From: Pseudodesulfovibrio mercurii
GTDB taxonomy: Bacteria > Desulfobacterota > Desulfovibrionia > Desulfovibrionales > Desulfovibrionaceae
Direction of reading: 5' to 3'
Length of the DNA: 32,000 nt
Assembly (NCBI RefSeq): GCF_000189295.2
Contig: NC_016803.1
Span: forward strand, 480,001 to 512,000
Of the stretch, positions 8,071 to 31,718 are shown one piece after another (within the stretch, counting starts at the first letter, position 1; every line of letters begins with the position of its first letter). Under the pieces are notes generated by a model. It did not search any database and was not told the origin of the DNA. It worked only from the letters and a program-made list of their open reading frames with translations. Position numbers and translations under genes: made by a program.

Positions 8071-8235
8071 ATCTACTCCTTGATCGTAGAATGCTGCCCA
8101 GAATGGGCCCGTTGGTCAAATTGATAAGATGCATCGTATGGGTGTCTTTGAAAGACTGTTTCAATGCTCGCTGCCCCTTGCCCTTCGTCCGCCGAGCCGG
8201 TAGAGAAAGGAAAATCCGAAACCGAGCGTGCCCGC

Positions 8236-8880
8236 ATGAAAATACCGATTGATCCCGCCGCGTTTGCGCCTTTCATCGCCTGGCTGTTCAAGCTCTGGGT
8301 GCGGACCATCCGGTTCGAGCCGCACGGAGCCATTGATTTCCTTGACCGGAACCGGCGCGGCGAGGCCGGGGTCATCGCCCTGTGGCACGGCGAAATCTTT
8401 CCGGTGACCGCCTTCGGCCACACCGTGAGTTCGCATCTGGTGACCTTCGTCAGCCAGTCCAAGGACGGCGAGGTCATCGCCCGCGTGCTGGAGCGCATCG
8501 GCCACACCACGGTGCGCGGGTCGAGCACCCGCGGCGGGGTCAAGGCCCTGCTCAAGGCCAAACGGGTCATGGAACAGGAAAACCGTATGGCCGTGTTCAC
8601 CATCGACGGGCCCAAGGGGCCGCGTCACAAGGCCAAGGACGGTGTCATCTTCCTGGCCCAGCGGGCCGGGGCCAAGATTCTGCCCATCCGGGCCTATCCC
8701 GAGCGCAAGGTGGTCTTCGACAAGTCCTGGGACCACTTCGTCCTGCCCCTGCCGTTCACCCGCTGCCCGGTCTACGTGGGCGAACCCATGGACGTGACCG
8801 ACGAGAAGCTGACCAAGGACGTTCTCGAACGCGAGACCGCCCGCCTCGAAGCCCGCATGCTCGCCCTGGGCGCGGAGTAG
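8236..8880 (+). CDS. DUF374 family protein (lysophospholipid acyltransferase-like)
   Basis: ALWHGEIFP...SQSKDGEVIARVLERIGHTTVRGSSTRGG...FTIDGPKGPRHKAKDGVIFLAQRAGAKILPI matches the DUF374 signature. Start taken at the ATG at 8236 (MKIPID). Confidence 0.7.
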   Translation: MKIPIDPAAFAPFIAWLFKLWVRTIRFEPHGAIDFLDRNRRGEAGVIALWHGEIFPVTAFGHTVSSHLVTFVSQSKDGEVIARVLERIGHTTVRGSSTRGGVKALLKAKRVMEQENRMAVFTIDGPKGPRHKAKDGVIFLAQRAGAKILPIRAYPERKVVFDKSWDHFVLPLPFTRCPVYVGEPMDVTDEKLTKDVLERETARLEARMLALGAE

Positions 8881-9024: not shown

Positions 9025-9053
9025 AAGCCCCCGGCTCGGGGAGCCGGGGGCTT
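9025..9053 (-). terminator. Rho-independent terminator after gcvT
   Basis: AAGCCCCCGGCTC / GAGCCGGGGGCTT form a perfect 13-bp stem around a GGG loop. On the minus strand it is followed by TTTCCTTTGG, and it sits about 25 nt downstream of the gcvT stop. Confidence 0.7.
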
Positions 9054-10164: not shown

Positions 10165-10185
10165 TGTATGCTCCTTGCGGTATTG

Positions 10186-11922
10186 CTATTGTCCCGAACC
10201 GGCCCGGCCCGACACGCGGGATTTCCGGATGGACCGGAATTCGTCGAGCAGCATGACCAGCTGTTGGTACTGTTTCTTGATGTCCCGCCCGTAGGGCGAG
10301 AGGTCCTTGTCGTCCCGCTGCACGTACTTGCGCAACAGGTAGGGGTCGGACACCACGTCGTTGCCGATGATCAGGATCTTGACCACGAGCTTGTCGAAAT
10401 AGTTGACGATCTCGAACTTGAGATCGTTCAGGATTTCGTTCATCAGCTCCAGCATGCGCCTGTACGAGATGGCCTCGCCCTTGTACTTGCGATAGCGCAA
10501 ATCTTCAAGGACCCGGATCTTCCTGGCCTGCTGAATCTGGCCGTAGCGCGACCAGACTTCCTGGTGCAGGTCGTGGAGCTCGTTGAAAATCTTGTAGTTG
10601 TCCGGGGCCAGGAGATAGGCGTCCAGGACGCGGACCAGCTGCGCGTAGTAGTCGTCCGAGTAGTCCACGATGCGGTGCATGTGCTTGGACAACCAGACGT
10701 AGAGCACCTTGAGCCGGTTTTCGTGGGTCTCGGTGTTGTCGATCAGCTCCTGGCGCTTGTAGTTCACCGGGATGCGGTACTCGCCGCGCACGATGTCGTT
10801 CAGGCGCAGGAGCATGTTGCGCACGTTCTGGATGATGTTCATGCCCTCGATGATCCGCCCGGTGATCGGGTGGATGATCTCCTGCCGGAGCACGGACAGG
10901 GCGCGGTCCTCGCGCACGTTCTTGGGGTTGTAGTCGTGCTGCTGGTAGGTCACCCGGAGGATGACCACGCGCTTCCTGGGGTCGATGAAGAATCCCTGGT
11001 CCTTGAGGACCTCCACAAGCTCCTTCTGGTTCTCGTTGACCTGGATCAGAGCGATCTTCTCCACCCTGGGGTACTTCATGGACCGCCTGGGCGTGCCCTT
11101 GGGCGGCGACATCAGGGTGGTGATGGTCCGGTCGCTCTGGCCGAGCACGCGAACGATGAACCGCTCGTGCTGGCGCAGCAGGCGGATGGCGAACATGGCC
11201 GAGGACGTGCGCCGCTCCGAGACGATGGGGAAGCCGTACAGCTCCATCATGAACTGGTAGACGAACAGCCGGTTGCACTCGTAGAGCAGGTTGTTGCCCG
11301 GCTTGAACTTGCCGATCTTGAGCCCGAACTGCTTGAGCTCGCTGTCCAGGTTGGACGGCAGGGAGGCGTACACGCCCTGCAGGGTGAACTCGCCCGCCGA
11401 GTTGAGCGCCAGGACGTGGGCCCGCTCCAACTGGAGCAGGAAGGGCAGTATCTTGTCGTAGTCCTGGATGGTGCAGATGTCGCAGGTTTCGAACCTGTTC
11501 AGGAATTCCTGGCGGTAGCGCTTGGGCAGGCGGCTCAGGAAGGTGCGGATGTTGGTCGCCCTGGCGTTGTCCTCCACCGAGCAGGAGTCCTGCACCAGCA
11601 TCTCCTCCCAGTCCGAGAGGGAGTGCAGGGCGTCGAACTGGAAGATTTCCTGAAAGGAATTGAGCTGCCGCTCGAAGACGACCATGGAAAAGCCCGGCAG
11701 ATTCTTGTGCTCGTAGAGATCGACTTCGAAGGAGGGCAGCAGCTCGCGGGCCTCCACCAGGGGGTAGTCGGGTTCCTCGAAATAGGGCCGGAGCAGGCAG
11801 TGCTTGATGTGCTCGTAGTCGATGAACGCCTTGAGTTCCTCAAGGGTTTCAAGTCGGACGCGGGACTTCTTTTTCCCTTTTTTCTTGTAGCCAGGAGCCT
11901 GGCTGAATGCTCTTTTCCACAT
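10186..11922 (-). CDS. Hypothetical protein, 578 aa, no recognisable family
   Basis: Uninterrupted 1.7-kb ORF with protein-like composition (K, I, N, Y, F, E, L rich) and G/C-ending codons like its neighbours. No TM segment or signal peptide. Lys-rich N-terminal tail KKKGKKKSR. ATG at 11922 has no obvious Shine-Dalgarno. The stop is 21 nt upstream of the gcvT start. Confidence 0.8.
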   Translation of the reverse strand: MWKRAFSQAPGYKKKGKKKSRVRLETLEELKAFIDYEHIKHCLLRPYFEEPDYPLVEARELLPSFEVDLYEHKNLPGFSMVVFERQLNSFQEIFQFDALHSLSDWEEMLVQDSCSVEDNARATNIRTFLSRLPKRYRQEFLNRFETCDICTIQDYDKILPFLLQLERAHVLALNSAGEFTLQGVYASLPSNLDSELKQFGLKIGKFKPGNNLLYECNRLFVYQFMMELYGFPIVSERRTSSAMFAIRLLRQHERFIVRVLGQSDRTITTLMSPPKGTPRRSMKYPRVEKIALIQVNENQKELVEVLKDQGFFIDPRKRVVILRVTYQQHDYNPKNVREDRALSVLRQEIIHPITGRIIEGMNIIQNVRNMLLRLNDIVRGEYRIPVNYKRQELIDNTETHENRLKVLYVWLSKHMHRIVDYSDDYYAQLVRVLDAYLLAPDNYKIFNELHDLHQEVWSRYGQIQQARKIRVLEDLRYRKYKGEAISYRRMLELMNEILNDLKFEIVNYFDKLVVKILIIGNDVVSDPYLLRKYVQRDDKDLSPYGRDIKKQYQQLVMLLDEFRSIRKSRVSGRAGSGQ

Positions 11923-12196
11923 AGGGAACGGTTCCGGGTCGGGTCAAAGGACGAGGGGCGGGGCCTCACGTGATCATCAAATTACTCTATACCCATCTGC
12001 CGTGAAATACAATGATTAGCGGATTATATTCGCATGATCCCCACTTGCGGCGGGTTCCGGATGATCAGGGGCGTCACACCGGTCCGTCGGGAAACAATGG
12101 GCCTGAATCATTGACTCTCTGCCCGCTGTTGGCTACTGTACCCAGGCCTTTGAGGCGCAACAGTACCGCAACGTTTCCGTGACCAGAGGGGGCGTC

Positions 12197-12400
12197 ATGA
12201 AAAAGAAGGACCAATGCCCGCGCTCGAAAATCAACGAGCAATATTGCACCTGCACCCACAACTGCGACAAGCACGGCATCTGTTGCGAATGTCTGCACTA
12301 CCACCGGCAGCGGGGTGAGCTGCCCGCCTGCTATTTCACCAAGGAAGAGGAAAAGACCTTCAACCGGTCCGTGGAATTCTTCATCCAGCGCCGGGCCTAG
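12197..12400 (+). CDS. Small cysteine-rich protein (8 Cys; resembles the family I recall as DUF6485)
   Basis: [47 protein letters not shown]... Start is the ATG at 12197, preceded by AGAGGGGG. The gene has its own terminator. The CxCxxxC...CCxC...HxH...C pattern suggests a metal or cluster site. Confidence 0.7.
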
Positions 12401-16736: not shown

Positions 16737-16823
16737 GCCGAGGTGGTGGAATTGGTAGACACGCTGTCTTGAGGGGGCAGTGGAAGAAATTCCGTGGGGG
16801 TTCGAATCCCCCCCTCGGCACCA
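16737..16823 (+). tRNA. leuU: tRNA-Leu, anticodon GAG, long variable arm, genomically encoded CCA
   Basis: Acceptor stem GCCGAGG/CCTCGGC. D arm GTGGAATTGGTAGAC. Anticodon stem CTGTC/GGCAG with loop TTGAGGG, giving anticodon GAG. Long variable arm. T arm GGGGGTTCGAATCCCCC. Discriminator A plus CCA at 16821-16823. Confidence 0.9.
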
Positions 16824-16902: not shown

Positions 16903-17571
16903 TCAGGCGGTCCGCATCACTTCCCGGCACCAGTTCAGGAGCAGGGCGTAGCGCTCTTTTTCGGAGCGGTCGGCCGGTGGGGCGGACAAGTCCAGACCCG
17001 CCTCGATGATTTCCTGGTCCACGCCGTCCAGCTCCGCGAGCAGTTCCCGTTTGCTCGCGCAGAACCGCCCGGAATCCAGGTAGTGGACCACCAGCATGAG
17101 GAAGAAGGCGGATTTGCAGGCCTCCTTCAGGATGGCGGGCCTGGCCTCCGCGTCGGCGTACAGATAGCTGTGGGTCAGCAGGTGGAGCAGGGTGGACGCG
17201 CCGATCCGTGCGCCGTACCGGACGTCCTCGCGGGTCACGGGCGGCAGGAAGTCCTCCAGCCTGCCGAAATGATCGGTCGTATCTTTCGCAAAAGAGAACA
17301 GTTCGTGGGGCGGCCAGGCGGCGAACTCCCGGACGCCGCAGAGGAATCCGCAGGCCTTGCGCCCCTCGGGCATGGCGTGGACGATGGTCCGGTACACGTC
17401 CAGGTCGTCCAGGGCCACCGTGTCCAGCAGGACCACGAGGTCGATGTCGCTCGTTTCCGTGGCCTCCCCACGGCGGTAGCTGCCCTGCAATCCGAGATAC
17501 CGCAGCCGGGGGCCGAAGGCCTCCTGCAGACGGGGAAGGACGTCGGCCATCCAGGTTCGCGCTTCGATCAT
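16903..17571 (-). CDS. Pol-beta superfamily nucleotidyltransferase with helical C-terminal domain
   Basis: GLQGSYRRGEATETSDIDLVVLLD has the GS...DxD NTase signature. About 130 aa of helical region follow. ATG at 17571 is preceded by AAGGAG. 222 aa. Confidence 0.75.
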   Translation of the reverse strand: MIEARTWMADVLPRLQEAFGPRLRYLGLQGSYRRGEATETSDIDLVVLLDTVALDDLDVYRTIVHAMPEGRKACGFLCGVREFAAWPPHELFSFAKDTTDHFGRLEDFLPPVTREDVRYGARIGASTLLHLLTHSYLYADAEARPAILKEACKSAFFLMLVVHYLDSGRFCASKRELLAELDGVDQEIIEAGLDLSAPPADRSEKERYALLLNWCREVMRTA

Positions 17572-17668
17572 GTCATACTCCTTGCGGGTTGCGTGAACCG
17601 GGGGTGTAGCAGTTGCCGCCTTCCGGCGCCAGCCCGATTCGGAGGCAATGGGCGGGGGAAGAGCGATC

Positions 17669-19594
17669 CTACTTCTTGGCGGTCTCGCGGGCTCCATGGG
17701 CCATGAGAAATTCCGCCAGATCGGCGAGTTGTCGTCTGGTTTCCGCCGGGACCCGGCCTTTGTTGTCCAATCGAGCAATGACGAGATCGAGCGGGGTCTT
17801 TCCGTGTTTGTTCAGGGCGTTGATGTCCGCACCGGCGTCGAGGAGCAATGCGCAGCTGTCCCGTTGGTTGTTCAGGGCGGCCTGGTGCAGGAGCGTATCG
17901 CCGCCCCGGTCCCTGGCCATGACGTCCGCACCCTGTCGGATCAGGTACGTGGCCGCCTCCTGCCTGCCGCTCATGGCGGCGCCGAAGAGGGGCGTCCTGC
18001 CCAAACGGTCCGGCTCGTCCACCGCATATCCCTTGCCCACCAGCAGTTCAAGCACCGTCAGGTCGTTGGCCCGCGCCGCGACGTGCATGGCCGTTCTGCC
18101 GAACTGGTCCTGTTGCGCGCCGTCAGCGCCCGCCTTGAGCAGGAGTTCGGCCATGTCGGGATAGCGCGCGCCGATGGCCACGTGCAGGGCGGACGCGCCT
18201 CCGGGGCCCGTGGCGTTGATGTCGGCCCCGTGGGCCAGGAGCAGGTTGACGGTCCCGGTGTTGTGCTTGCCCACGGCGATGGAGAGCGGGCTCAACTTGG
18301 CCCGGCCCTGGAGATTCACGTCCGCGCCGGAGGCGATGAGCAGCGGGGCCACGCGGCTGTCGGGCTTGGCGGCCGCGTAGGCGAGGGCGGTCAACCCCAT
18401 GCCGGAGATCAGGTCGGGGTCGGCTCCGGCGTCGATCAGAACCTTTGCGGAACCGTACCAGTCCAGGCTGGCCGCCCGTTGGAGCGGGGTGTCCATCCGT
18501 CCCATGCGATCGGGCTTCACCCCGTACTGGAGGAGATATTTGATGACTTCGGGCCGGTTGTTCTGGGCGGCCAGATGCAGGGGAGAGTCCCACTGGCTGT
18601 CCGAGACGTTCGGGTCCGCGCCCGCCTCGAGCAGCAGGATGACCGTCGAGAGCCTGCCTTCATGGACCGCGTAGGCAAGCGGGGTTTTCTTGAATCCGTC
18701 CGCTTGATTCGGGTCCGCCCCCTCCTTGAGCAGGCGGCGCACGTCCTCCAGACCGAACTGGCTCTGGGCGGCCCGATGCAGGGGGTATTCCTCCTTTTTC
18801 CGCTCCGGACGCGGGGTCGGGCGCGAGGACGGATGGGTATCCTTTGCCCCGTTGGCGACCAATATCTCGGCCATGGCCGTGAAGTCGTTCTGGGCCGCCA
18901 CCTGTAACGGCGTGCCATATTGTCCCGGAGCGTTCAGGTCGGCGCCGTGCCGTATCAACGGCTCCATGAGGGCCACCCGGTCGAAGCGCACGGCCTCGTG
19001 CACCGCCGTCTGGCCGCGCTTGTTCGGGATGTTCGGGTCGGCCCCGGCGTCCAGCAGCAGGAGGATGCGGGACGCCTCGACCCAGCCGATGCCGGAGCTG
19101 AGCGGAGTGTCTCCCTCTTTGCCGCGCACATTGAGGTCGGGCTTGCGTTCCAGCAGGACGCGGAGGGCCTCCAGGGCTGCGGGGCCGTGGGCCATGAAGG
19201 ACGTAGACAGGGGAGTGCCCCCGCCGTCGCTGGCCGCGTTGACGTCCGCACCCGCCTCCATGAGGACCACCATGTTCGCGAAGCGACCCTGCCCGGCGGC
19301 CGAAATTAATGGCGTGACGCCGTACTTGTTGCGCGCATCCACTTCCGCGCCGGCCCGGAGCAGGGCGCGGCAGATGTCCGGGGAGCCCCAGGCGGCGGCC
19401 ACGTGCAGCGGGGTGTTGGCGTCCTTGTCCCGTTCATGGGGATCGGCCCCTGCGGCCAAGGCTTCCCATACGGGCCGCGCATCCAGGGAACGGGACAGTT
19501 GGATCAGGGTCTTGCCCTGTGCCATGGAGGGGAAAAGCGTCAGGCACAGTAGAGCGATCAGCAGCGAATGCCGCACGCAACGACGTATAATCAT
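17669..19594 (-). CDS. Secreted/periplasmic ankyrin-repeat protein (~17 repeats)
   Basis: Sec-type signal peptide MIIRRCVRHSLLIALLCLTLFPSMAQ. About 17 repeats of 33 aa with the xTPLHxAA...LLxxGADxN pattern follow, in blocks of about 6 and 11 split by the linker THPSSRPTPRPERKKEE. Start taken at the ATG at 19594. Confidence 0.9.
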   Translation of the reverse strand: MIIRRCVRHSLLIALLCLTLFPSMAQGKTLIQLSRSLDARPVWEALAAGADPHERDKDANTPLHVAAAWGSPDICRALLRAGAEVDARNKYGVTPLISAAGQGRFANMVVLMEAGADVNAASDGGGTPLSTSFMAHGPAALEALRVLLERKPDLNVRGKEGDTPLSSGIGWVEASRILLLLDAGADPNIPNKRGQTAVHEAVRFDRVALMEPLIRHGADLNAPGQYGTPLQVAAQNDFTAMAEILVANGAKDTHPSSRPTPRPERKKEEYPLHRAAQSQFGLEDVRRLLKEGADPNQADGFKKTPLAYAVHEGRLSTVILLLEAGADPNVSDSQWDSPLHLAAQNNRPEVIKYLLQYGVKPDRMGRMDTPLQRAASLDWYGSAKVLIDAGADPDLISGMGLTALAYAAAKPDSRVAPLLIASGADVNLQGRAKLSPLSIAVGKHNTGTVNLLLAHGADINATGPGGASALHVAIGARYPDMAELLLKAGADGAQQDQFGRTAMHVAARANDLTVLELLVGKGYAVDEPDRLGRTPLFGAAMSGRQEAATYLIRQGADVMARDRGGDTLLHQAALNNQRDSCALLLDAGADINALNKHGKTPLDLVIARLDNKGRVPAETRRQLADLAEFLMAHGARETAKK

Positions 19595-19743
19595 GGAACG
19601 TCTCCCGCAAAAATCTCGGGGAAACAGCCTGAGCAATCTTGCCTATACCAGCATAATATGCCCGTGTATATCGGTTTATTTCCCGAAGCGACGGGAATCG
19701 GTCATCTCCGGTTCGACCTGGAACGCTTCGTGCATTTCCTGAC

Positions 19744-19760: not shown

Positions 19761-19954
19761 TGTATTGTTCAACGCATCGCTATCATTGGATGAAATGGTG
19801 ATCAGGAAAGGTCGGGACCACGCTGTATCAGCGATATATCCCGGTCGGCGTTCATCAAACGTTGCAATCGGCAACAGCCAGAAACGCCGCTTCAGTTCGA
19901 CCGCATGTCGAAAACCGCTGCCTGAGGGGATCAGGCCCAAGCCACGAGCGATTC

Positions 19955-21463
19955 ATGACAGCCATTACAATTTTCAACGGAGTTTTCTGCGATGCGCGGC
20001 CCGTGGTCGAGCACGTGGCGGAAATCACCGGCTACCGGCTGGTGGACGACCGCGAAATCATAGCCGATGCGGCCCGGCTATCGGGCCGGAAACGGGCGGC
20101 GTTCAGCGGTCTGTTCGATCCGGAGGCCGGGGGATCGCCTCTGGCCGCGCCGGAGCGCAACGGGCTGGTCGCCTGGCTGCGCTACGCCGTGGCCCGGAAG
20201 CTGTCCGGGGGTGAGGATCTGGTCTTCTGGGGCTATTCGGCCCTGCTCACGCCGCGAAATTGCGGAAATATTTTGGCTGCTTGCCTGGTCAATGAGCGCA
20301 ATGACCGGCTCTGGACGGCCTGCCGGGACGGTCGGCACACCGAGGCCCAGGCCGTGGCCCGTATGACCGCCGACGACCGGGTGCGCGGCGAGTGGGTGGT
20401 AGATGTTACGGATTGCAACGATCCCTGGTCCGAGACACTGTACGACGTGGTCGTTCCGGTGGGGGCCCTGGGGGTCCGGCAGAGCGCCTGCCTCATCGTC
20501 GAGCAACTGGCCAACGGCGTGGTCCGCGATTCCGAGGCCACCCGGGCTTGCGCGGAGGATTTCCGGCTGGCCGCCCGGGTGCGGGCCGAGCTGGCGCGCG
20601 CTGGGCACGACGTGGCCGTTGTCGCCCGCGATGGTTCGCTGACCTTGAGCCTGGAAGACCACGACGCCACCCTGGCGAGCGGGGCGCGCGACCTGTTCGA
20701 GGAGATCGCGGCCATGGCTGGCGTGCGCGGCGTGGAGATCGGAGCGGGGCGGCGTTACAACCCGAACGACGTATTTCAGCGGGCGGCCTGCGCCCGTCCG
20801 TGCCCCGACGCGGCGGCCAGGGAGGATGCGGCCTGTACCTCGGCCCGCGCCGAGGACGTGGCCCTGGCCGAGGCGGTGCGTTCGCGCATCCCCTTCGACG
20901 CCTGGGGCGTATCCGTGTTCGTGAAGGACGGCTTCGTGTCCCTGACCATCAACGACCACGCCAGGCTGGTGGAGCGCATGGCCCGGCGGGTCTGCGATCT
21001 GGCCGCCCGCGTCGAAGGCGTCGCGGACGTGACCTTCGGCATCGGCCGGGAGTACCACCTGGGCGCGGCCTGCAAGCGCGTCCGCCGGGAGCTGTGCCGT
21101 ACCCTGCTGGCCGACGAGCGGCGCAAGTTCCTGCCGACACTGTCCGCCCGGCTGCAACGCGACGGCGGGGTGGGGGCCTTCGCCCTGTACGACGGCAAGA
21201 GCGTCTTCTACACCATGGAGGAGCCCGAGGTGGTCCTCCTGGACATGCCGGATTCCGGCGGGCCGGACGTGCTGCGCCGGTTCAAGCGGGACCATCCGGC
21301 AACCGAGGTCCTGGTCCTGTCGGACCGGAAGGCCGAACAGGAGCGCGAAACCTGCATGAACCTGGGGGCCTTCGCCTGCCTCCACAAGCCGGTCAACAGC
21401 GTGGCCCTGAGCGAGACCATCCGGGCCGCCTGCGAAAAGTCCCGCGCCTGCGCCTGCTCCTGA
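19955..21463 (+). CDS. Multidomain protein: cytidylate-kinase-like (degenerate P-loop) + 2 BON domains + C-terminal receiver (REC) domain
   Basis: N-terminus ITIFNGVFCDARPVVEHVAEITGYRLVDDREII and ...WVVDVTDCNDPWSETLYDVVVPV resemble the cytidylate kinase-like family but lack GxxGxGK. BON-like segments VAVVARDGSLTLSLEDHD...VRGVEIG and VSVFVKDGFVSLTINDH...VADVTFG. REC: LLADE, VVLLDMPDSGG, VLVLSD, LHKP. Start taken at the ATG at 19955 (502 aa). Confidence 0.75.
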   Translation: MTAITIFNGVFCDARPVVEHVAEITGYRLVDDREIIADAARLSGRKRAAFSGLFDPEAGGSPLAAPERNGLVAWLRYAVARKLSGGEDLVFWGYSALLTPRNCGNILAACLVNERNDRLWTACRDGRHTEAQAVARMTADDRVRGEWVVDVTDCNDPWSETLYDVVVPVGALGVRQSACLIVEQLANGVVRDSEATRACAEDFRLAARVRAELARAGHDVAVVARDGSLTLSLEDHDATLASGARDLFEEIAAMAGVRGVEIGAGRRYNPNDVFQRAACARPCPDAAAREDAACTSARAEDVALAEAVRSRIPFDAWGVSVFVKDGFVSLTINDHARLVERMARRVCDLAARVEGVADVTFGIGREYHLGAACKRVRRELCRTLLADERRKFLPTLSARLQRDGGVGAFALYDGKSVFYTMEEPEVVLLDMPDSGGPDVLRRFKRDHPATEVLVLSDRKAEQERETCMNLGAFACLHKPVNSVALSETIRAACEKSRACACS

Positions 21464-26207: not shown

Positions 26208-26711
26208 TTAGGAGTCCTGCCAGAGCTTGCGCCCTTCCTGCCGGTACGTGATGGCGGCAAGCGCCTCGTCCACGGTGGTCCCGTCGGGAAAGACGAAGTC
26301 CGGGGCGATCTCCTTGAGCGGCACGAGCACGAACGCCCTTTCCTTGGCGCGCGGATGCGGCAGGGTCAGGAAGTCCATGTCCATGACGGTGTCGCCCCAG
26401 GCGATGATGTCCATGTCGAGCGGCCTGGGACCGCCGGGCACGGCCCTGGTGCGGCCCATCTTGGCCTCGATGGCCGTGCAGGTGGACAGGAAGCCCGGCG
26501 GCGACCAGATCTCGGCGTCGATCTCGAGCTCGATCACCTGGTTGGTGAACCACGGCTGATCCTTGATCTCCCCCTGGGGTTCGGTCTCGTAGTATTCCGA
26601 GACCTTTTTCAGGCGGATGTCGTCACCGTAGTCCTCGAGCAGGACCAGGGCCTCGTGGAGGTTGTCTTCGGTGTCTCCCACGTTGGAGCCGAGGCTCACG
26701 TAGCAGATCAC
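26208..26711 (-). CDS. folK: 2-amino-4-hydroxy-6-hydroxymethyldihydropteridine diphosphokinase (HPPK)
   Basis: VICYVSLGSNVGD...YETEPQG..DQPWFTNQV...RPLDMDII...LTLPHPRAKERAFVLVPL is canonical FolK. GTG start at 26711 overlaps the dapL stop (GTGA). Confidence 0.85.
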   Translation of the reverse strand: MICYVSLGSNVGDTEDNLHEALVLLEDYGDDIRLKKVSEYYETEPQGEIKDQPWFTNQVIELEIDAEIWSPPGFLSTCTAIEAKMGRTRAVPGGPRPLDMDIIAWGDTVMDMDFLTLPHPRAKERAFVLVPLKEIAPDFVFPDGTTVDEALAAITYRQEGRKLWQDS

Positions 26712-27874
26712 AGTTTCGAAATTCTGGATACGGCCTCCTCGAGCTTGTCGTTGTTCACGGTCAGGGAGATGCGGAAGTACCCTTCCCCAGGCGTGCCGAA
26801 GCCGTTGCCGGGGGTCAGGACCACGCCGGTCTTCATGAGCACGTTGGTCACGAATTCCGCGGACTTGTACCCTTCCGGCACGTTGCACCAGAGGTAGAAG
26901 GAGGCGTCCGGCACACGGTGCCTGATGCCGATCTTGGTCAGGGCGGCGCTAACCACGTCCCGGCGCTCCTTGTAGATGGCCCGGAAGCTCTCGGCAAAGG
27001 GCTCGCCCTGGCGCAGGGCCGCGATGCCCGCCTCCTGGACGGCCTGGAAGATGCCGGAGTCCACGTTTTCCTTGATCTTGCCCAGGCCCGCGACCAGGCT
27101 CCGGTTGCCAACGGCCATGCCGATGCGCCAGCCGGTCATGTTGTAGGTCTTGGACAGGGAATGGAACTCGATGCAGACGTCCTTGGCCCCCTCGCACTCG
27201 AAGATGGAAATGGGCTTGTTGTCCGGATCGTAGTAAATTTCGGTGTAGGCCGCGTCCGAGACCACGATGACGTTGAATTCCTTGGCCTTCTCGATGAGCT
27301 TCTCGTAGAAGGGCTTGGTCGCGGTGGCCGCGGTCGGGTTGTTCGGATAGCAGACGAAGATCATCTTGGCCTTGGCCCAGGTGTCGTCGGAAATGGCGTC
27401 CAGGTCCACGAGGAAGTCGTTTTCCTCAAGCAGGGGCAGGTACTCCACCCTTCCGCCGGCGAACTCCGTGGCCACGCCGTAGACCGGGTAGTTGGGGGTG
27501 GCCACCAGGACCGTGTCGCCGGGGTTGACGTAGGCCATCGGGAAGTGGGCGATGCCCTCCTTGGAGCCGATCAGGCTGACGATCTCGGTCTCGGGGTCGA
27601 GATCCACGCCGAACCGCTGCTTGTACCAGTCGGCCACGGCCTGGCGGTAGGCCAGCATGCCGATGTAGTCGGGATAGCGGTGGTTCTTGGGCTTCTTGGC
27701 GCTCTCGTAGAGGGCTTCGATGATGAATTCGGGGGTGGGCAGGTCGGGGTCGCCGATGCCCAGGCTGATGATGTCCATGCCCTTCTTGGCGACTTCCGCC
27801 TTGGCCTTGTCGATGGCGGCGAACAGATACGGCGGCAGCGTCGAGAGACGGTCGGCCAACTTGAATTCAGACAT
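26708..27874 (-). CDS. dapL: LL-diaminopimelate aminotransferase (class I/II PLP aminotransferase)
   Basis: MSEFKLADRLSTLPPYLFAAIDKAKAEVAKKGMDIISLGIGDPDLPTP..., NHRYPDY, NPTAA and the SLSKTYNMTGWRIG PLP-lysine motif. AAGGAGAG Shine-Dalgarno upstream of the ATG at 27874. 388 aa. Confidence 0.8.
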   Translation of the reverse strand: MSEFKLADRLSTLPPYLFAAIDKAKAEVAKKGMDIISLGIGDPDLPTPEFIIEALYESAKKPKNHRYPDYIGMLAYRQAVADWYKQRFGVDLDPETEIVSLIGSKEGIAHFPMAYVNPGDTVLVATPNYPVYGVATEFAGGRVEYLPLLEENDFLVDLDAISDDTWAKAKMIFVCYPNNPTAATATKPFYEKLIEKAKEFNVIVVSDAAYTEIYYDPDNKPISIFECEGAKDVCIEFHSLSKTYNMTGWRIGMAVGNRSLVAGLGKIKENVDSGIFQAVQEAGIAALRQGEPFAESFRAIYKERRDVVSAALTKIGIRHRVPDASFYLWCNVPEGYKSAEFVTNVLMKTGVVLTPGNGFGTPGEGYFRISLTVNNDKLEEAVSRISKL

Positions 27875-28081
27875 GTATGATCTCTCCTTGAAATCCGATA
27901 TTGAAGCACTTTCATAATGGGGGCATGACCCTGTGTCAATGCGAACCATTGCGCTTTGACCCTCACCTTGGTAGCAAGGAGGGTGGCAGCCGTGCTTGGT
28001 TTCCATGCAGTGCGGCAGATACCCTTTTCCCGTGGATATCATCCAATACTTTAATAGTATCAAAGCGGTCCGGCAGTGATC

Positions 28082-29005
28082 ATGGCGCGCCCCGACAAAG
28101 AGAAAAACATCAACGAGTACAGCCACCCCTGGGTGGACAGATACCTTGAGCACCTGCTGATCGAAAAGGGGCTGTCCGAGAACAGCCTGACCGGCTACGC
28201 CAACGACCTGGGCTCCCTGCTCGCCTTCCTGGAGGAGCGCTCCTTTCCGCTCAAGGACCTGACGGACCAGACCCTGTTCCTCTACCTGACCCATCTGCGG
28301 GCGCGCGGCCTGAAGAGCCGCTCCCTGGCCCGGCACCTCTCCTCCCTGCGCGGGTTCTTCGCCTTCGCCGTGGGCGAGAAGTGGTACAAGGAGGACCCCG
28401 GTCAGCTCCTCGAAAATCCCAAGCTGCCGCGCAAGCTGCCGGAATTTTTAAGCCGCGAGGAGATTTCCCGGGTCCTGGCCCTGCCCGACACCTCCACCCC
28501 GCTGGGCATGCGCGACAAGGTCATGCTGGAACTGCTCTACGCGGCGGGGCTCCGGGTGTCCGAGCTCATCGGCATGAAGGTCCTGGACTATGACCCCCAG
28601 GTGGGCATGCTCAAGGTCTTCGGCAAGGGGTCCAAGGACCGGCTCATCCCCATCCACTACACGGCCCAGGACTACCTCAACCGCTACTTGGAATTCACCC
28701 GGCCCGGCTTCAAGCCACGTGAGGACTTCATGTTCCTGAACCGCTCGGGCAAGGGGCTGACCCGCCAGGGCGTGTGGAAGCTGATCAAGAAATACGCCGA
28801 GGCGGCGGGCATAAAGCGGTCCATCTCGCCGCACACCTTCCGCCACTCCTTCGCCACCCACCTGCTGGAAGGGGGCGCGGACCTGCGCACCGTGCAGATT
28901 CTCCTGGGGCACGCGGACATCAGCGCCACCGAGATCTACACCCACGTGGAGGCCAACCGGCTCAAGACCCTGCACCGGAAGTTCCACCCGCGATCAACCA
29001 TGTGA
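28082..29005 (+). CDS. xerD: Site-specific tyrosine recombinase XerD
   Basis: NPKLPRKLPEFLS, RDKVMLELLYAAGLRVSEL, GKGSKDRLIPI, HTFRHSFATHLLEGGADLRTVQILLGHADISATEIYTHV and a C-terminal HRKFHPR closely parallel E. coli XerD (catalytic R..HxxR..H..Y present). Confidence 0.85.
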   Translation: MARPDKEKNINEYSHPWVDRYLEHLLIEKGLSENSLTGYANDLGSLLAFLEERSFPLKDLTDQTLFLYLTHLRARGLKSRSLARHLSSLRGFFAFAVGEKWYKEDPGQLLENPKLPRKLPEFLSREEISRVLALPDTSTPLGMRDKVMLELLYAAGLRVSELIGMKVLDYDPQVGMLKVFGKGSKDRLIPIHYTAQDYLNRYLEFTRPGFKPREDFMFLNRSGKGLTRQGVWKLIKKYAEAAGIKRSISPHTFRHSFATHLLEGGADLRTVQILLGHADISATEIYTHVEANRLKTLHRKFHPRSTM

Positions 29006-29030: not shown

Positions 29031-31718
29031 ATGAAAAACAAACCGGAAAAGATACAGGCCCCGGTCGTGATCACGGCCCACGCCAACGCGGACTTCGACG
29101 CCTTGGCGGCCATGGTCGCGGCCAGCAAGCTCTATCCCGGCGCGGTGCTCATCTTTCCGGGCAGCCAGGAATCAAACCTGCGCAACTTCTTCATCGAGTC
29201 CACCACCTATCTCTTCAATTTCAAGGCCTTCAAGGACATCGAGCCGGAGTCCGTGGAGCTTTTGGTGGTGGTGGACACCCGTCAGCGCTCGCGCATTCCC
29301 CATGTCCGCCCCCTACTCGACAACGAGAACCTGCGCATCCACCTCTACGACCACCACCCGGACAGCGAGGACGACCTGCCCGCCGAGAAGAGCGTGGTCC
29401 GCGAGTGGGGCTCCACCACGGCCATCATCGTGGCCGAGATCCGCGAAAGGGGGCTGTCCCTGAACATGGAGGAGGCCACCCTGCTCGGCATCGGCATTTA
29501 CGAGGACACCGGCTCCTTCGGCTTCAACACGACCACGCCCCAGGACTTCGAGGCCGCGGGCTGGCTCAAGTCCCAGGGCATGGACATCGAGGTCATCACC
29601 GACCTTCTGTCCCACGAGCTGTCCGCCGAGCAGGTCACCTATCTCGGCGAATTGTTCAAGAACGCCAAGACATACGACATCCACGGGGTGGACGTGGTCG
29701 TGACCGAGATGTCCACGGACAAGTTCGTGCCGGACTTCGCCCTGCTGGTCCACAAGCTCATGGACATGGAGAAGATCAAGGTGGTCTTCGCCATGGGCCG
29801 CATGGCCGACCGCATCCACCTGGTGGCCCGGTCCAAGAGCCCGGACGTCAACGTGGGCCGCATCTGCGCCTCCCTGGGCGGCGGCGGGCACGACGCGGCG
29901 GCCTCGGCGACCATCAAGGACCGCACCCTGGCCGAGGTGCGCGACGACCTGTTCGCCCTGTTCTACTCCCAGATCAATCCGCAGATCGTGGTGGACTCGC
30001 TCATGTCCCGCCCGCCCGTGGTCATCGAGGGCGACAAGACCATGGCCGACGCCGTGGAGCTGATGACCCGCTACGGGCTCAAGGACGTGCCCGTGGTGGC
30101 CAAGGACAGCATGCAATGCATCGGCATAATCGGTCATAAAATCGCGGACAAGGCCCTGTCCCACCACCTGGGCGACGTGGGCCTGTCCGAGTACATGACC
30201 AGGGCCTTCGAGACCGTGGAGTCCTCGACCGATCTGTACCGGGTCATGGAGATCATCCTGAGCAACCGGCAGCGCATGCTGCCCGTGGTGGAAAACGGCG
30301 AACTGGTCGGGGTCATCACCCGCACGGACCTGACCAACATGCTCATCGAGGAGCCCGCCCGCATCCCCGACTCCCTCATGCCGGACCACCGCCGCGAGCG
30401 GAACATCGCCTCCCAGGTCAGGAACCGGCTGCCCCAGCGCATGCTCGACCTGCTCAAGGAGGCGGGCGAGCTGGGCACGGACATGGGCTGGGAGGTCTAC
30501 GCCGTGGGCGGGTTCGTGCGCGACATCCTGCTCGGTCGGCCCAACCTGGACCTGGACCTGGTGGTCGAGGGCGACGGCATCGCCTTTGCCCGGCGGTTCG
30601 CGGCCAAGCTCGGCGGCCGGGTCAAGGCCCACTCCAAGTTCAAGACCGCCGTGGTCATCCTCGACGACGGCCAGCGGGTGGACGTGGCCACGGCCCGGCT
30701 GGAATATTACGAATACCCCGCCGCCCTGCCCACGGTGGAGCTGTCGTCCATCAAGATGGACCTGTACCGCCGCGACTTCACGGTCAACGCCCTGGCCCTG
30801 CGCATCAACCCCGGCCGTTACGGCCAGCTGGTGGACTTCTTCGGGGCCGAGCGGGACATCCGCAACAAGACCATCCGCGTGCTCCATTCCCTGAGCTTCG
30901 TGGAGGACCCGACGCGCATCCTCCGGGCCATCCGCTTCGAGCGGCGCTTCGACTTCCAGATCGGCGGCCAGACCATGCGGCTGATCAAGAACGCCCTCAG
31001 CCTCAAGCTCTTCAGCAAGCTGTCCGGGACCAGGGTCATGCACGAGCTGCAACTGATCATGAACGAGGAGGACCCCCTGGCCTGCCTGTTGCGCATGCAG
31101 GAGCTGGGCATCATGGAGGCCATCCATCCCCTGCTCTCCCTGGACAAGGAGCGGGTCCAGATACTGACCGAGCTGGTCAAGGTCCACAACTGGTACAAGC
31201 TCCTCTATCTGGAGCCCCCGGTGGTCCCCTGGAAACTCTATCTCCTGGGCATGACCATGGGCATCAAGCGGGACCAGATCGACCAGGTGACCGGGCGGCT
31301 GCATTTCACCAGGCGCGAGGAGCGCGACTTCTTCCAGTTGCGGGACCAGATCGGCGAAGCCCTGATGAAACTCATGGGCTGGAAGGAGGGCCGTTCGCGC
31401 CTGAGCCGGTTGTACAAGATCCTCCATCCCCTGCCGGTGGAGGGCATCCTGTTCCTCATGGCGCGCAGCCGAAAGGAATACATTCGGCGGAATATTTCGC
31501 AATATCTCGCCAGGTTGCAGTATGTCGAGATTGAGGTGAACGGCAAGGACCTCAAGAATATCGGCATAGAGCCGGGCCCGATCTACGCGATCATCCTGGA
31601 CAAGCTGATGACCGCCAAGATCGACGGGCGGGCGGAAACCCGGCACGAGCAATTGAATCTGGCGAAAAAATTGAATAAGGAATTATCGGCAAGGTTCGAA
31701 GAGGAGAGCGGAGACTGA
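29031..31718 (+). CDS. Fusion protein: DHH/DHHA1 phosphoesterase + CBS pair + class II tRNA nucleotidyltransferase/poly(A) polymerase head-neck domains
   Basis: DHH motifs HANADFDAL, VVVDT, DHH (LYDHHP) and EDTGSF. DHHA1 motif GGGGHDAAAS. Two CBS modules at about aa 320-450. NTase motifs GGFVRDILLGRPNLDLDLVV, RRDFTVNAL and EDPTRILRAIRF. Confidence 0.9.
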   Translation: MKNKPEKIQAPVVITAHANADFDALAAMVAASKLYPGAVLIFPGSQESNLRNFFIESTTYLFNFKAFKDIEPESVELLVVVDTRQRSRIPHVRPLLDNENLRIHLYDHHPDSEDDLPAEKSVVREWGSTTAIIVAEIRERGLSLNMEEATLLGIGIYEDTGSFGFNTTTPQDFEAAGWLKSQGMDIEVITDLLSHELSAEQVTYLGELFKNAKTYDIHGVDVVVTEMSTDKFVPDFALLVHKLMDMEKIKVVFAMGRMADRIHLVARSKSPDVNVGRICASLGGGGHDAAASATIKDRTLAEVRDDLFALFYSQINPQIVVDSLMSRPPVVIEGDKTMADAVELMTRYGLKDVPVVAKDSMQCIGIIGHKIADKALSHHLGDVGLSEYMTRAFETVESSTDLYRVMEIILSNRQRMLPVVENGELVGVITRTDLTNMLIEEPARIPDSLMPDHRRERNIASQVRNRLPQRMLDLLKEAGELGTDMGWEVYAVGGFVRDILLGRPNLDLDLVVEGDGIAFARRFAAKLGGRVKAHSKFKTAVVILDDGQRVDVATARLEYYEYPAALPTVELSSIKMDLYRRDFTVNALALRINPGRYGQLVDFFGAERDIRNKTIRVLHSLSFVEDPTRILRAIRFERRFDFQIGGQTMRLIKNALSLKLFSKLSGTRVMHELQLIMNEEDPLACLLRMQELGIMEAIHPLLSLDKERVQILTELVKVHNWYKLLYLEPPVVPWKLYLLGMTMGIKRDQIDQVTGRLHFTRREERDFFQLRDQIGEALMKLMGWKEGRSRLSRLYKILHPLPVEGILFLMARSRKEYIRRNISQYLARLQYVEIEVNGKDLKNIGIEPGPIYAIILDKLMTAKIDGRAETRHEQLNLAKKLNKELSARFEEESGD

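Follow-up and report, generated by a model that had tools for sequence, protein, structure and literature searches.

Gene content of the locus

The stretch analysed here (the window) comprises 32,000 nucleotides (nt) of Pseudodesulfovibrio mercurii ND132 (contig NC_016803.1, positions 480,001 to 512,000). Our subject is a gene within it that encodes a protein of 578 amino acids (aa) and lies directly upstream of gcvT, the gene of the T protein (aminomethyltransferase). An exact-sequence look-up matched the protein to DND132_0443 (WP_014321088.1, UniRef100_F0JFA4) which, like every named member of its cluster, is labelled 'hypothetical protein'. The features of the locus are listed in Table 1; in gene strings, X denotes the gene of the DND132_0443 family.

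DND132_0443 is a genuine gene, vertically inherited and under strong purifying selection. Its G+C content at the first, second and third codon positions (GC1/GC2/GC3) is 0.58/0.30/0.92, with GC3 of 0.85-0.94 in the flanking genes. Local G+C at the gene is 0.58-0.61 against 0.63-0.69 in the surroundings; since GC3 is neighbour-like and GC2 is only 0.30, this dip reflects amino-acid composition and not foreign origin. In comparisons with three close relatives, the ratio of nonsynonymous to synonymous substitution rates (dN/dS) was 0.09-0.11 for DND132_0443 and 0.13-0.26 for gcvT on the same contigs. An earlier note on this DNA, made from its letters without database searches, had judged the gene to be real and long-resident; the neighbour-like GC3, the dN/dS of ~0.1 and the more than 1,400 homologous clusters described below agree with that judgement.

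By its profile scores, the downstream neighbour is a bona fide gcvT (PF01571 GCV_T, E = 1.4e-89; PF08669 GCV_T_C, E = 1.2e-14; TIGR00528, 321.6 bits against a cut-off of 235.85; NF001567, 369.6 against 300). The anatomy between and beyond the two genes was as the earlier note had read it, with a TTG start, a short spacer holding an AAGGAG motif, and a terminator and a convergent gene (DUF374, 8164-8880, + strand) after gcvT. A minus-strand pattern scan detected no terminator-like hairpin in the spacer. The same note had described gcvT as solitary, and neither gcvH nor gcvP turned up among the window open reading frames (ORFs) that had a Pfam scan or a name taken from contigs of relatives, small and shadow ORFs being outside that scan. 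The X-gcvT adjacency is old and tight within Desulfovibrionaceae (see below), and co-transcription in ND132, which the note had called almost certain, is likely. Judging from this anatomy, DND132_0443 is very probably the first gene of a two-gene transcript with gcvT, in ND132 and in other Pseudodesulfovibrio: it has a conserved upstream block of its own, the spacer bears a ribosome-binding site (RBS), and the only terminator follows gcvT.

Upstream regions of 12 Pseudodesulfovibrio (alignment A5) contained three common blocks, none of which was called by a consensus promoter scan. The GTCAATnATTCAAGCCnATT motif and the palindrome TCACGTGA are possible operator or promoter elements. No Rfam family, the glycine riboswitch RF00504 included, matched at E up to 1 within 11850-12250, and no glycine, tetrahydrofolate (THF) or PyrR-type RNA element was found upstream of DND132_0443; the sole Rfam match of the window at gathering threshold was a single tRNA (16737-16820, + strand) after secG. 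The small divergent DUF6485 gene is a conserved upstream neighbour of X in several genera. Among our numbered loci it likewise stands between X and suhB in L012 and L013, and it is uncalled in L015 and L018.

Table 1. Features of the DND132_0443 locus (window positions) and, in the last row, of a second family (positions within the numbered loci)
Feature	Position	Strand	Evidence and remarks
DND132_0443 coding sequence, 578-aa protein	10186..11922	-	ORF; ATG start, TAG stop 10186-10188
Variable Lys-rich N-terminal segment, ~residues 12-24	11851..11889	-	Unconserved in alignment A1; low model confidence
Conserved alpha/beta core, ~residues 52-400	10723..11769	-	Model and alignment A2; holds almost all invariant polar residues
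All-helical C-terminal domain, ~residues 401-573	10204..10722	-	DSSP helices 400-573 of the model
Spacer between DND132_0443 and gcvT, 21 nt	10165..10185	-	gcvT Shine-Dalgarno sequence AAGGAG 10176-10171
gcvT, T protein/aminomethyltransferase, 361 aa	9079..10164	-	Pfam, TIGR00528; TTG start 10164-10162
Terminator-like hairpin and T-rich tail after gcvT	9026..9045	-	Pattern scan; sole minus-strand site found
Promoter-like block TTGTAT...TATAGAGT (TTGTAT...TATA)	~12012-11984	-	Alignment A5; candidate
Block with palindrome TCACGTGA (GATGATCACGTGAGG)	11978-11964	-	Alignment A5; candidate
Third block GTCAATnATTCAAGCCnATT, closer to the divergent DUF6485 gene	12115-12095		Alignment A5; candidate
DUF6485, small Cys-rich protein, divergent	12179..12400	+	PF20095, E = 1.3e-6; likely ATG 12197
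~405-412-aa protein, upstream of X	L019 4366-5598; L020 4383-5600; L021 4302-5522; L104 4262-5500		

A protein family confined to Thermodesulfobacteriota

A search of 5.8 billion proteins retrieved 1,487 homologues of DND132_0443 at E <= 1e-3, all of them unannotated and none carrying a precomputed Pfam domain. At 90% identity the family forms more than 1,400 clusters, all 'hypothetical' (further entries labelled 'hypothetical protein' are WP_174405559.1 and WP_338601490.1). Identity to DND132_0443 is 96% in Desulfovibrio sp. Huiquan2017, 64-91% within Pseudodesulfovibrio and Salidesulfovibrio, and 55-60% in Maridesulfovibrio, D. aminophilus and Desulfohalovibrio. An exhaustive phmmer search of 1.84 billion cluster representatives gave only 108 matches, about eight of them full-length (36-56% identity) and the remainder fragments. 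Distant representatives, used as seeds, led to Desulfarculus, Desulfocarbo, Desulfoferula, Dethiosulfatarculus and Desulfobacca/Desulfobaccales, and also to metagenome-assembled genomes labelled Syntrophobacterales, Syntrophales and Desulfobacteraceae. From the family and distant-seed searches it follows that the family is confined to several orders of Thermodesulfobacteriota, where it is strongly conserved. The idea that DVU0671, a 'putative protein' forming a large complex in D. vulgaris, might be a family member yielded nothing.

Homology extends over the full length of the proteins (~555-595 aa) and includes the invariant motifs DYPL..R.L.P.F, FQFD, SERRTS, GQSDRT, EDRALS, IHP.TG, VRGE and RLKFL..W..K (alignments A1 and A2). 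The 50 members aligned in A2 share 47 invariant columns, nearly all at residues 43-413, among them E71, E92, D97, R167, E227, E236, R237, D264, R265, K289, H329, R340 and H351. The crowding of invariant charged and aromatic side chains (Arg, Lys, His, Asp, Glu and Tyr) in the core hints at an enzyme's catalytic site or a site of ligand binding.

The protein is predicted to be soluble and basic, of ~66-69 kDa, with an alpha/beta core and a duplicated helical C-terminal domain. The full-length AlphaFold2 model, built with a 50-sequence alignment, reached a mean predicted local distance difference test (pLDDT) of 86.2 and a predicted template modelling score (pTM) of 0.77. Within the C-terminal domain, residues ~401-463 align with 488-555 (hhalign probability 93.2%, E = 3e-7); a corresponding duplication of the core was rejected, as residues 60-235 and 230-400 gave a trivial 6-residue overlap only. 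Family members have isoelectric points (pI) of ~8.6-10, with a basic character in each of the two domains. The earlier note was correct in seeing a helical C-terminal third and no transmembrane helix (maximum Kyte-Doolittle 19-residue window 1.42). It had, however, placed the Lys-rich stretch KKKGKKKSR at the wrong end of the protein. The stretch occupies residues 13-21, is unconserved in homologues (A1) and is modelled with low confidence (pLDDT <50 at residues 14-19); it is a variable linker and not a family feature.

No known family or fold was recovered. Pfam and NCBIfam gave zero families for DND132_0443 at E up to 1, PHROG a best E of 0.14 and PADLOC no match. Pfam searches with eight diverse family members yielded only single-member chance matches, and phmmer with DND132_0443 and a family profile both failed to match any PDB sequence. 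Foldseek found no match at E <= 1e-3 to the full-length model in PDB (350,542 chains) and BFVD; the best matches were helical bundles with template modelling scores (TM) <= 0.31. Because noise from the helical bundle could mask matches to the core, residues 52-402 were predicted separately (pLDDT 83.8, pTM 0.83), and this model too gave only noise against PDB (probability <= 0.2, TM <= 0.21). Translin/C3PO, designed helical repeats, MukF, GajA and PCNA share generic helical-bundle or beta-sheet geometry with the model over 90-240 aligned columns, but at E > 0.006, TM <= 0.31 and root-mean-square deviation (rmsd) of 6-25 Angstrom. Scores of this kind are noise and give no basis for homology; with TM so low and rmsd so high, MukF/kleisin, Translin, GajA and PCNA were all rejected as leads. 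Among characterised proteins, the family thus has no relative that could be detected by sequence or by structure. The earlier note could not place the protein in any family either, and the profile and structure searches that it proposed found no characterised match.

Association with gcvT among relatives

We collected 104 loci carrying X, from 11 species genomes, 80 metagenomes and 13 look-ups of specific homologues; 93 of them were informative, i.e. had at least 600 nt of downstream sequence. Of these 93, 67 have gcvT as the next gene downstream in the same orientation, all belonging to Desulfovibrionaceae, and pairs were found in Pseudodesulfovibrio, Maridesulfovibrio, Desulfohalovibrio, D. 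aminophilus and D. subterraneus. At two further loci the two genes are separated by ~400 nt. Spacers vary from -17 to 386 nt, with a median of 28 nt; most Pseudodesulfovibrio loci have 18-28 nt with an RBS, and two have ~130 nt. The gcvT start falls on the same aligned codon in relatives and is mostly not ATG (TTG in 28, GTG in 25 and ATG in 14 of 70 loci).

Some individual spacers stand apart. Those of L043 (8211-8590) and L047 are 380-386 nt long, very GC-rich and strongly structured (predicted dG -186 and -167 kcal/mol), and may represent an inserted repeat or a structured RNA. In L038 and L040 a strong hairpin occurs in the spacer, followed in L038 by a T-rich run.

The pair is part of a long gene string whose order is syntenic and whose members are unrelated housekeeping genes: secG-tpiA-pgk-rimI-nudix-suhB-(mreB-like-GAF-DUF6485) divergent from X-gcvT-rsmE-mgsA. 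In one clade of Desulfovibrionaceae, which includes human-gut contigs and whose loci are 48-51% identical, the string is kept while gcvT is missing from it, and an rsmE-like gene and mgsA follow X directly. D. desulfuricans G11 may belong to this clade; its glycine cleavage genes are reported to form one four-gene cluster, DsvG11_0325-0328 (PMC7547702). In other genera of Desulfovibrionaceae, X and suhB are separated by the gene of a GAF protein and an additional MreB-like gene (in D. vulgaris, DVU1682 and DVU1681). This pair does not occupy that position in Pseudodesulfovibrio, including P. mercurii.

As judged from these gene orders, the X-gcvT pairing is an arrangement at the level of Desulfovibrionaceae, specific to that lineage and lying within a housekeeping block. 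Conservation of the adjacency, which the earlier note had proposed to check, therefore holds within Desulfovibrionaceae (67/93) and fails in Desulfarculales, in lineages of Desulfobaccales type, at L102 and L103, and in one clade of Desulfovibrionaceae. The note had also named loss of the adjacency in close relatives as evidence against its proposal; we found such loss in more distant relatives and not in close ones. A dedicated glycine-cleavage accessory would accompany gcvT wherever its family occurs, and X does not. Since the pairing is not a family-wide module, we conclude that DND132_0443 is not a dedicated GcvT partner.

Gene contexts outside the gcvT pairing

In Desulfarculales, the neighbours of X are a genuine moaA (downstream) and a DJC28_CD protein. 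In lineages of Desulfobaccales type and in two further lineages, the order is pyrR, a gene for an unannotated ~405-aa protein, yjbQ and X; in L019, L020, L021 and L104, X is the last gene of this pyrR-led string, abutting or overlapping yjbQ. The protein always found between pyrR and yjbQ represents a second unannotated family, ~405-412 aa long and rich in Pro, Ala, Arg and Leu, for which Pfam and NCBIfam gave no match. In L103 (4665-8660) a pyrK-like gene, a DUF488 gene, X and pyrD (class 1B dihydroorotate dehydrogenase) follow one another with 4-nt overlaps at all junctions. In one lineage, a divergent yceD-rpmF-plsX cluster stands beside X, and the same cluster occurs upstream in the gut clade. 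Among the neighbours in the gut clade, L075, L077 and L043 (aminotransferase, yceD, plsX, fabH, xerD-like, GGDEF and VTT genes), no third independent pyrimidine context was found. The 32-kb window itself contains none of pyrR, yjbQ, the ~405-aa protein, the GAF protein, the MreB-like protein, moaA and DJC28.

The counterpart in D. vulgaris

In D. vulgaris Hildenborough, the 'hypothetical protein' gene DVU1683 is entered in Table S5 of PMC10102598 at 1761202-1762938 (+ strand), with 1737 nt corresponding to 578 codons plus stop, exactly the length of DND132_0443. It directly follows the divergent GAF gene DVU1682 and mreB-2 (DVU1681), as in D. subterraneus, Maridesulfovibrio and Desulfohalovibrio, and, like DND132_0443, it has a G+C content below the genome average. 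From its position and length, DVU1683 is probably the ortholog of DND132_0443. Its entry in the same table is FALSE for essentiality in both ess.wt and ess.jw710, where it counts 345 and 1,029 insertion positions respectively, and lists a further 109 central ones from the Fels data set; the non-overlapping length is given as 1733 of 1737 nt (PMC10102598 Table S5). DVU1683 is thus dispensable in the wild type and JW710 transposon libraries, and the protein would be conditionally useful and not essential. The 1733 non-overlapping nt point to a 4-nt overlap with a neighbouring gene. The next gene, DVU1684, is presumably gcvT. Full-text searches returned no paper naming DVU1682-DVU1684 or DND132_0442-DND132_0444; DVU1683 and DVU1684 are absent from the D. 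vulgaris interactome supplement, and DND132_0442 and DND132_0443 from the ND132 transcriptome supplement.

Possible function and alternative explanations

On balance, we favour the reading that DND132_0443 is a phylum-restricted, dark housekeeping protein which is probably co-transcribed with gcvT here, is not its dedicated partner, and offers a lead towards nucleotides or nucleic acids. As for the function, our tentative best guess, in its broad form, is a nucleotide- or nucleic-acid-directed activity tied to the supply of pyrimidines and one-carbon (C1) units. Four observations together make this the likeliest activity: the conserved core, the uniformly basic pI, which would fit handling of nucleotides or nucleic acids, two operonic links to pyrimidine genes that seem to have arisen independently (pyrR-unannotated gene-yjbQ-X and pyrK-DUF488-X-pyrD), and the role of gcvT in supplying 5,10-methylene-THF, which is used in pyrimidine methylation. 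In a narrower form, the protein would be a new enzyme fold specific to Thermodesulfobacteriota, acting where folate C1 metabolism meets that of pyrimidines or uridine-containing nucleic acids, for example in a methylene-THF-dependent reaction or in pyrimidine salvage or modification. Such an enzyme would explain the operonic coupling of X to gcvT, to pyrR-yjbQ and to pyrK/pyrD in separate lineages, and we regard it as a long shot.

Several points weigh against the favoured reading. Its pyrimidine and nucleic-acid component draws on two gene contexts, on composition and on residue conservation. The moaA, yceD-rpmF-plsX, xerD-like and aminotransferase contexts have nothing to do with pyrimidines, and a housekeeping neighbourhood may be all that the members of the family have in common. 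X is an operon member in L019, L020, L021, L104 and L103, yet it has no similarity to Pyr enzymes, phosphoribosyltransferases, dihydroorotate dehydrogenases, ThyA/ThyX or nucleoside-modifying families; no pyr gene is present in the window, and the association is absent from Desulfovibrionales and Desulfarculales. The orthology of DVU1683 is drawn from position and length, and co-transcription from anatomy. Finally, a functional tie to GcvT specific to Desulfovibrionaceae is conceivable, because the link is old and tight there and because DVU1683 apparently overlaps its neighbour by 4 nt.

Among the alternatives, the one that survives best is a nucleic-acid-binding housekeeping factor, associated with RNA and the ribosome or with DNA and devoid of a small-molecule role. 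Its basic core would bind RNA or DNA, and the duplicated helical domain would serve oligomerisation or partner binding. The family-wide pI of 8.6-10 and the basic character of both domains fit this, as do recurrent neighbours concerned with RNA, ribosomes or DNA: rsmE-like, mgsA, pyrR and yceD-rpmF (the last in two unrelated lineages), RNase E/G, PNPase, rpsO and truB nearby in relatives, and rluB-like, efp and ftsK in the window. However, housekeeping neighbourhoods are rich in such genes regardless, neither sequence nor structure searches found a known nucleic-acid-binding domain, and the D. vulgaris gene is dispensable. We give this explanation a limited chance.

The proposal of the earlier note fares somewhat worse and is in our view unlikely. 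It saw in DND132_0443 a new partner or regulator of GcvT or one-carbon metabolism, which can be spelled out as a partner, chaperone or regulator of the T protein or of the glycine cleavage/reductive glycine system, translated stoichiometrically from one mRNA. The tight, terminator-free junction with gcvT speaks for it, as do the retention of the adjacency at 67/93 loci across five named groups of Desulfovibrionaceae, the short median spacer with overlapping genes at some loci, and the position of gcvT apart from gcvH and gcvP. On the other hand, the family persists without an adjacent gcvT: X has other neighbours in at least four other lineages and is kept in the Desulfovibrionaceae clade that has no gcvT at the same position. 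The glycine cleavage genes of D. desulfuricans G11 are reported to form a cluster of their own elsewhere (PMC7547702). In several relatives the two genes are set apart by long, structured spacers (120-386 nt) or by hairpins that end in T-rich tails, and the region is a syntenic run of unrelated genes. Moreover, constraint is tighter on DND132_0443 than on gcvT, which would be unexpected for an accessory factor. The likeness to GcvH, GcvP, Lpd, GcvA/GcvR and the glycine riboswitch consists of gcvT adjacency and probable co-transcription; DND132_0443 has no lipoyl-carrier, pyridoxal phosphate, flavin adenine dinucleotide, LysR or ACT domain, and no Rfam element precedes it as in riboswitch-controlled gcvT. 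Adjacency by itself does not support the proposal.

Far less probable is a divergent nuclease of PD-(D/E)XK or Toprim type at residues ~236-330. The modelled order of elements there is alpha-beta-beta-beta-alpha-beta, with E236 in a helix, D264 before strand 2 and E288-K289 in strand 3; E236, D264 and K289 are invariant in A2, and chains of Gabija GajA recur among the weak Foldseek matches, with ~90 residues aligned. Against this, Desulfarculales have Q or N where E288 would be, E and K are adjacent instead of forming (D/E)-x-K (A1), the GajA matches have probability <= 0.2, TM <= 0.14 and rmsd of 6-7 Angstrom, and hidden Markov model searches gave no nuclease family. A spurious ORF, or a gene of a mobile element or of defence gained by horizontal transfer, to which the slightly lowered G+C and the lack of annotation wherever the family was looked up might point, is excluded by the neighbour-like GC3 (the lower G+C being traced to GC2), the syntenic position across Desulfovibrionaceae, the low dN/dS and the PADLOC and PHROG searches without a match.

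Other features of the window

Several other genes of the window deserve mention. A 655-aa protein (17669-19636, - strand) consists almost wholly of ankyrin repeats (Ank_2, E = 2e-86), and its predicted start overlaps a 291-aa NTP_transf_2 ORF (16903-17778); an ankyrin-repeat protein of this kind is unusual in a free-living sulfate reducer. A 533-aa fusion (19862-21463, + strand) joins a cytidylate-kinase-like domain (Cytidylate_kin2) to a C-terminal response-regulator receiver. An 895-aa protein (29031-31718, + strand) combines DHH/DHHA1, two CBS domains and a PolyA_pol/CCA-adding head domain, and is preceded by a XerD-like recombinase (28076-29005). HPPK (folK, folate biosynthesis; 26208-26888, - strand) lies ~15 kb from gcvT, and no gene of the window besides these two was seen to be folate-related; the folK ORF overlaps the start of a 542-aa class I/II aminotransferase (26708-28336).

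Implications

The sequences of the DND132_0443 family are public, though only as 'hypothetical protein'; no Pfam or NCBIfam model covers them, and no solved or predicted viral structure resembles the model. Dark families of this kind are numerous, and D. vulgaris can do without its probable ortholog. Even so, DND132_0443 is among the better-defined dark proteins of these organisms, as it is large, tightly constrained, present in several orders and, counting the probable D. vulgaris ortholog, in two genetic model organisms, and modelled with confidence without a solved neighbour. For annotation, adjacency to gcvT alone is insufficient to assign it to glycine cleavage. P. mercurii ND132 and D. 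vulgaris Hildenborough are genetic models for mercury methylation and sulfate reduction, and both processes draw on folate one-carbon metabolism. Should DND132_0443 turn out to be a new enzyme or nucleic-acid factor, it would represent a phylum-specific addition to core metabolism.

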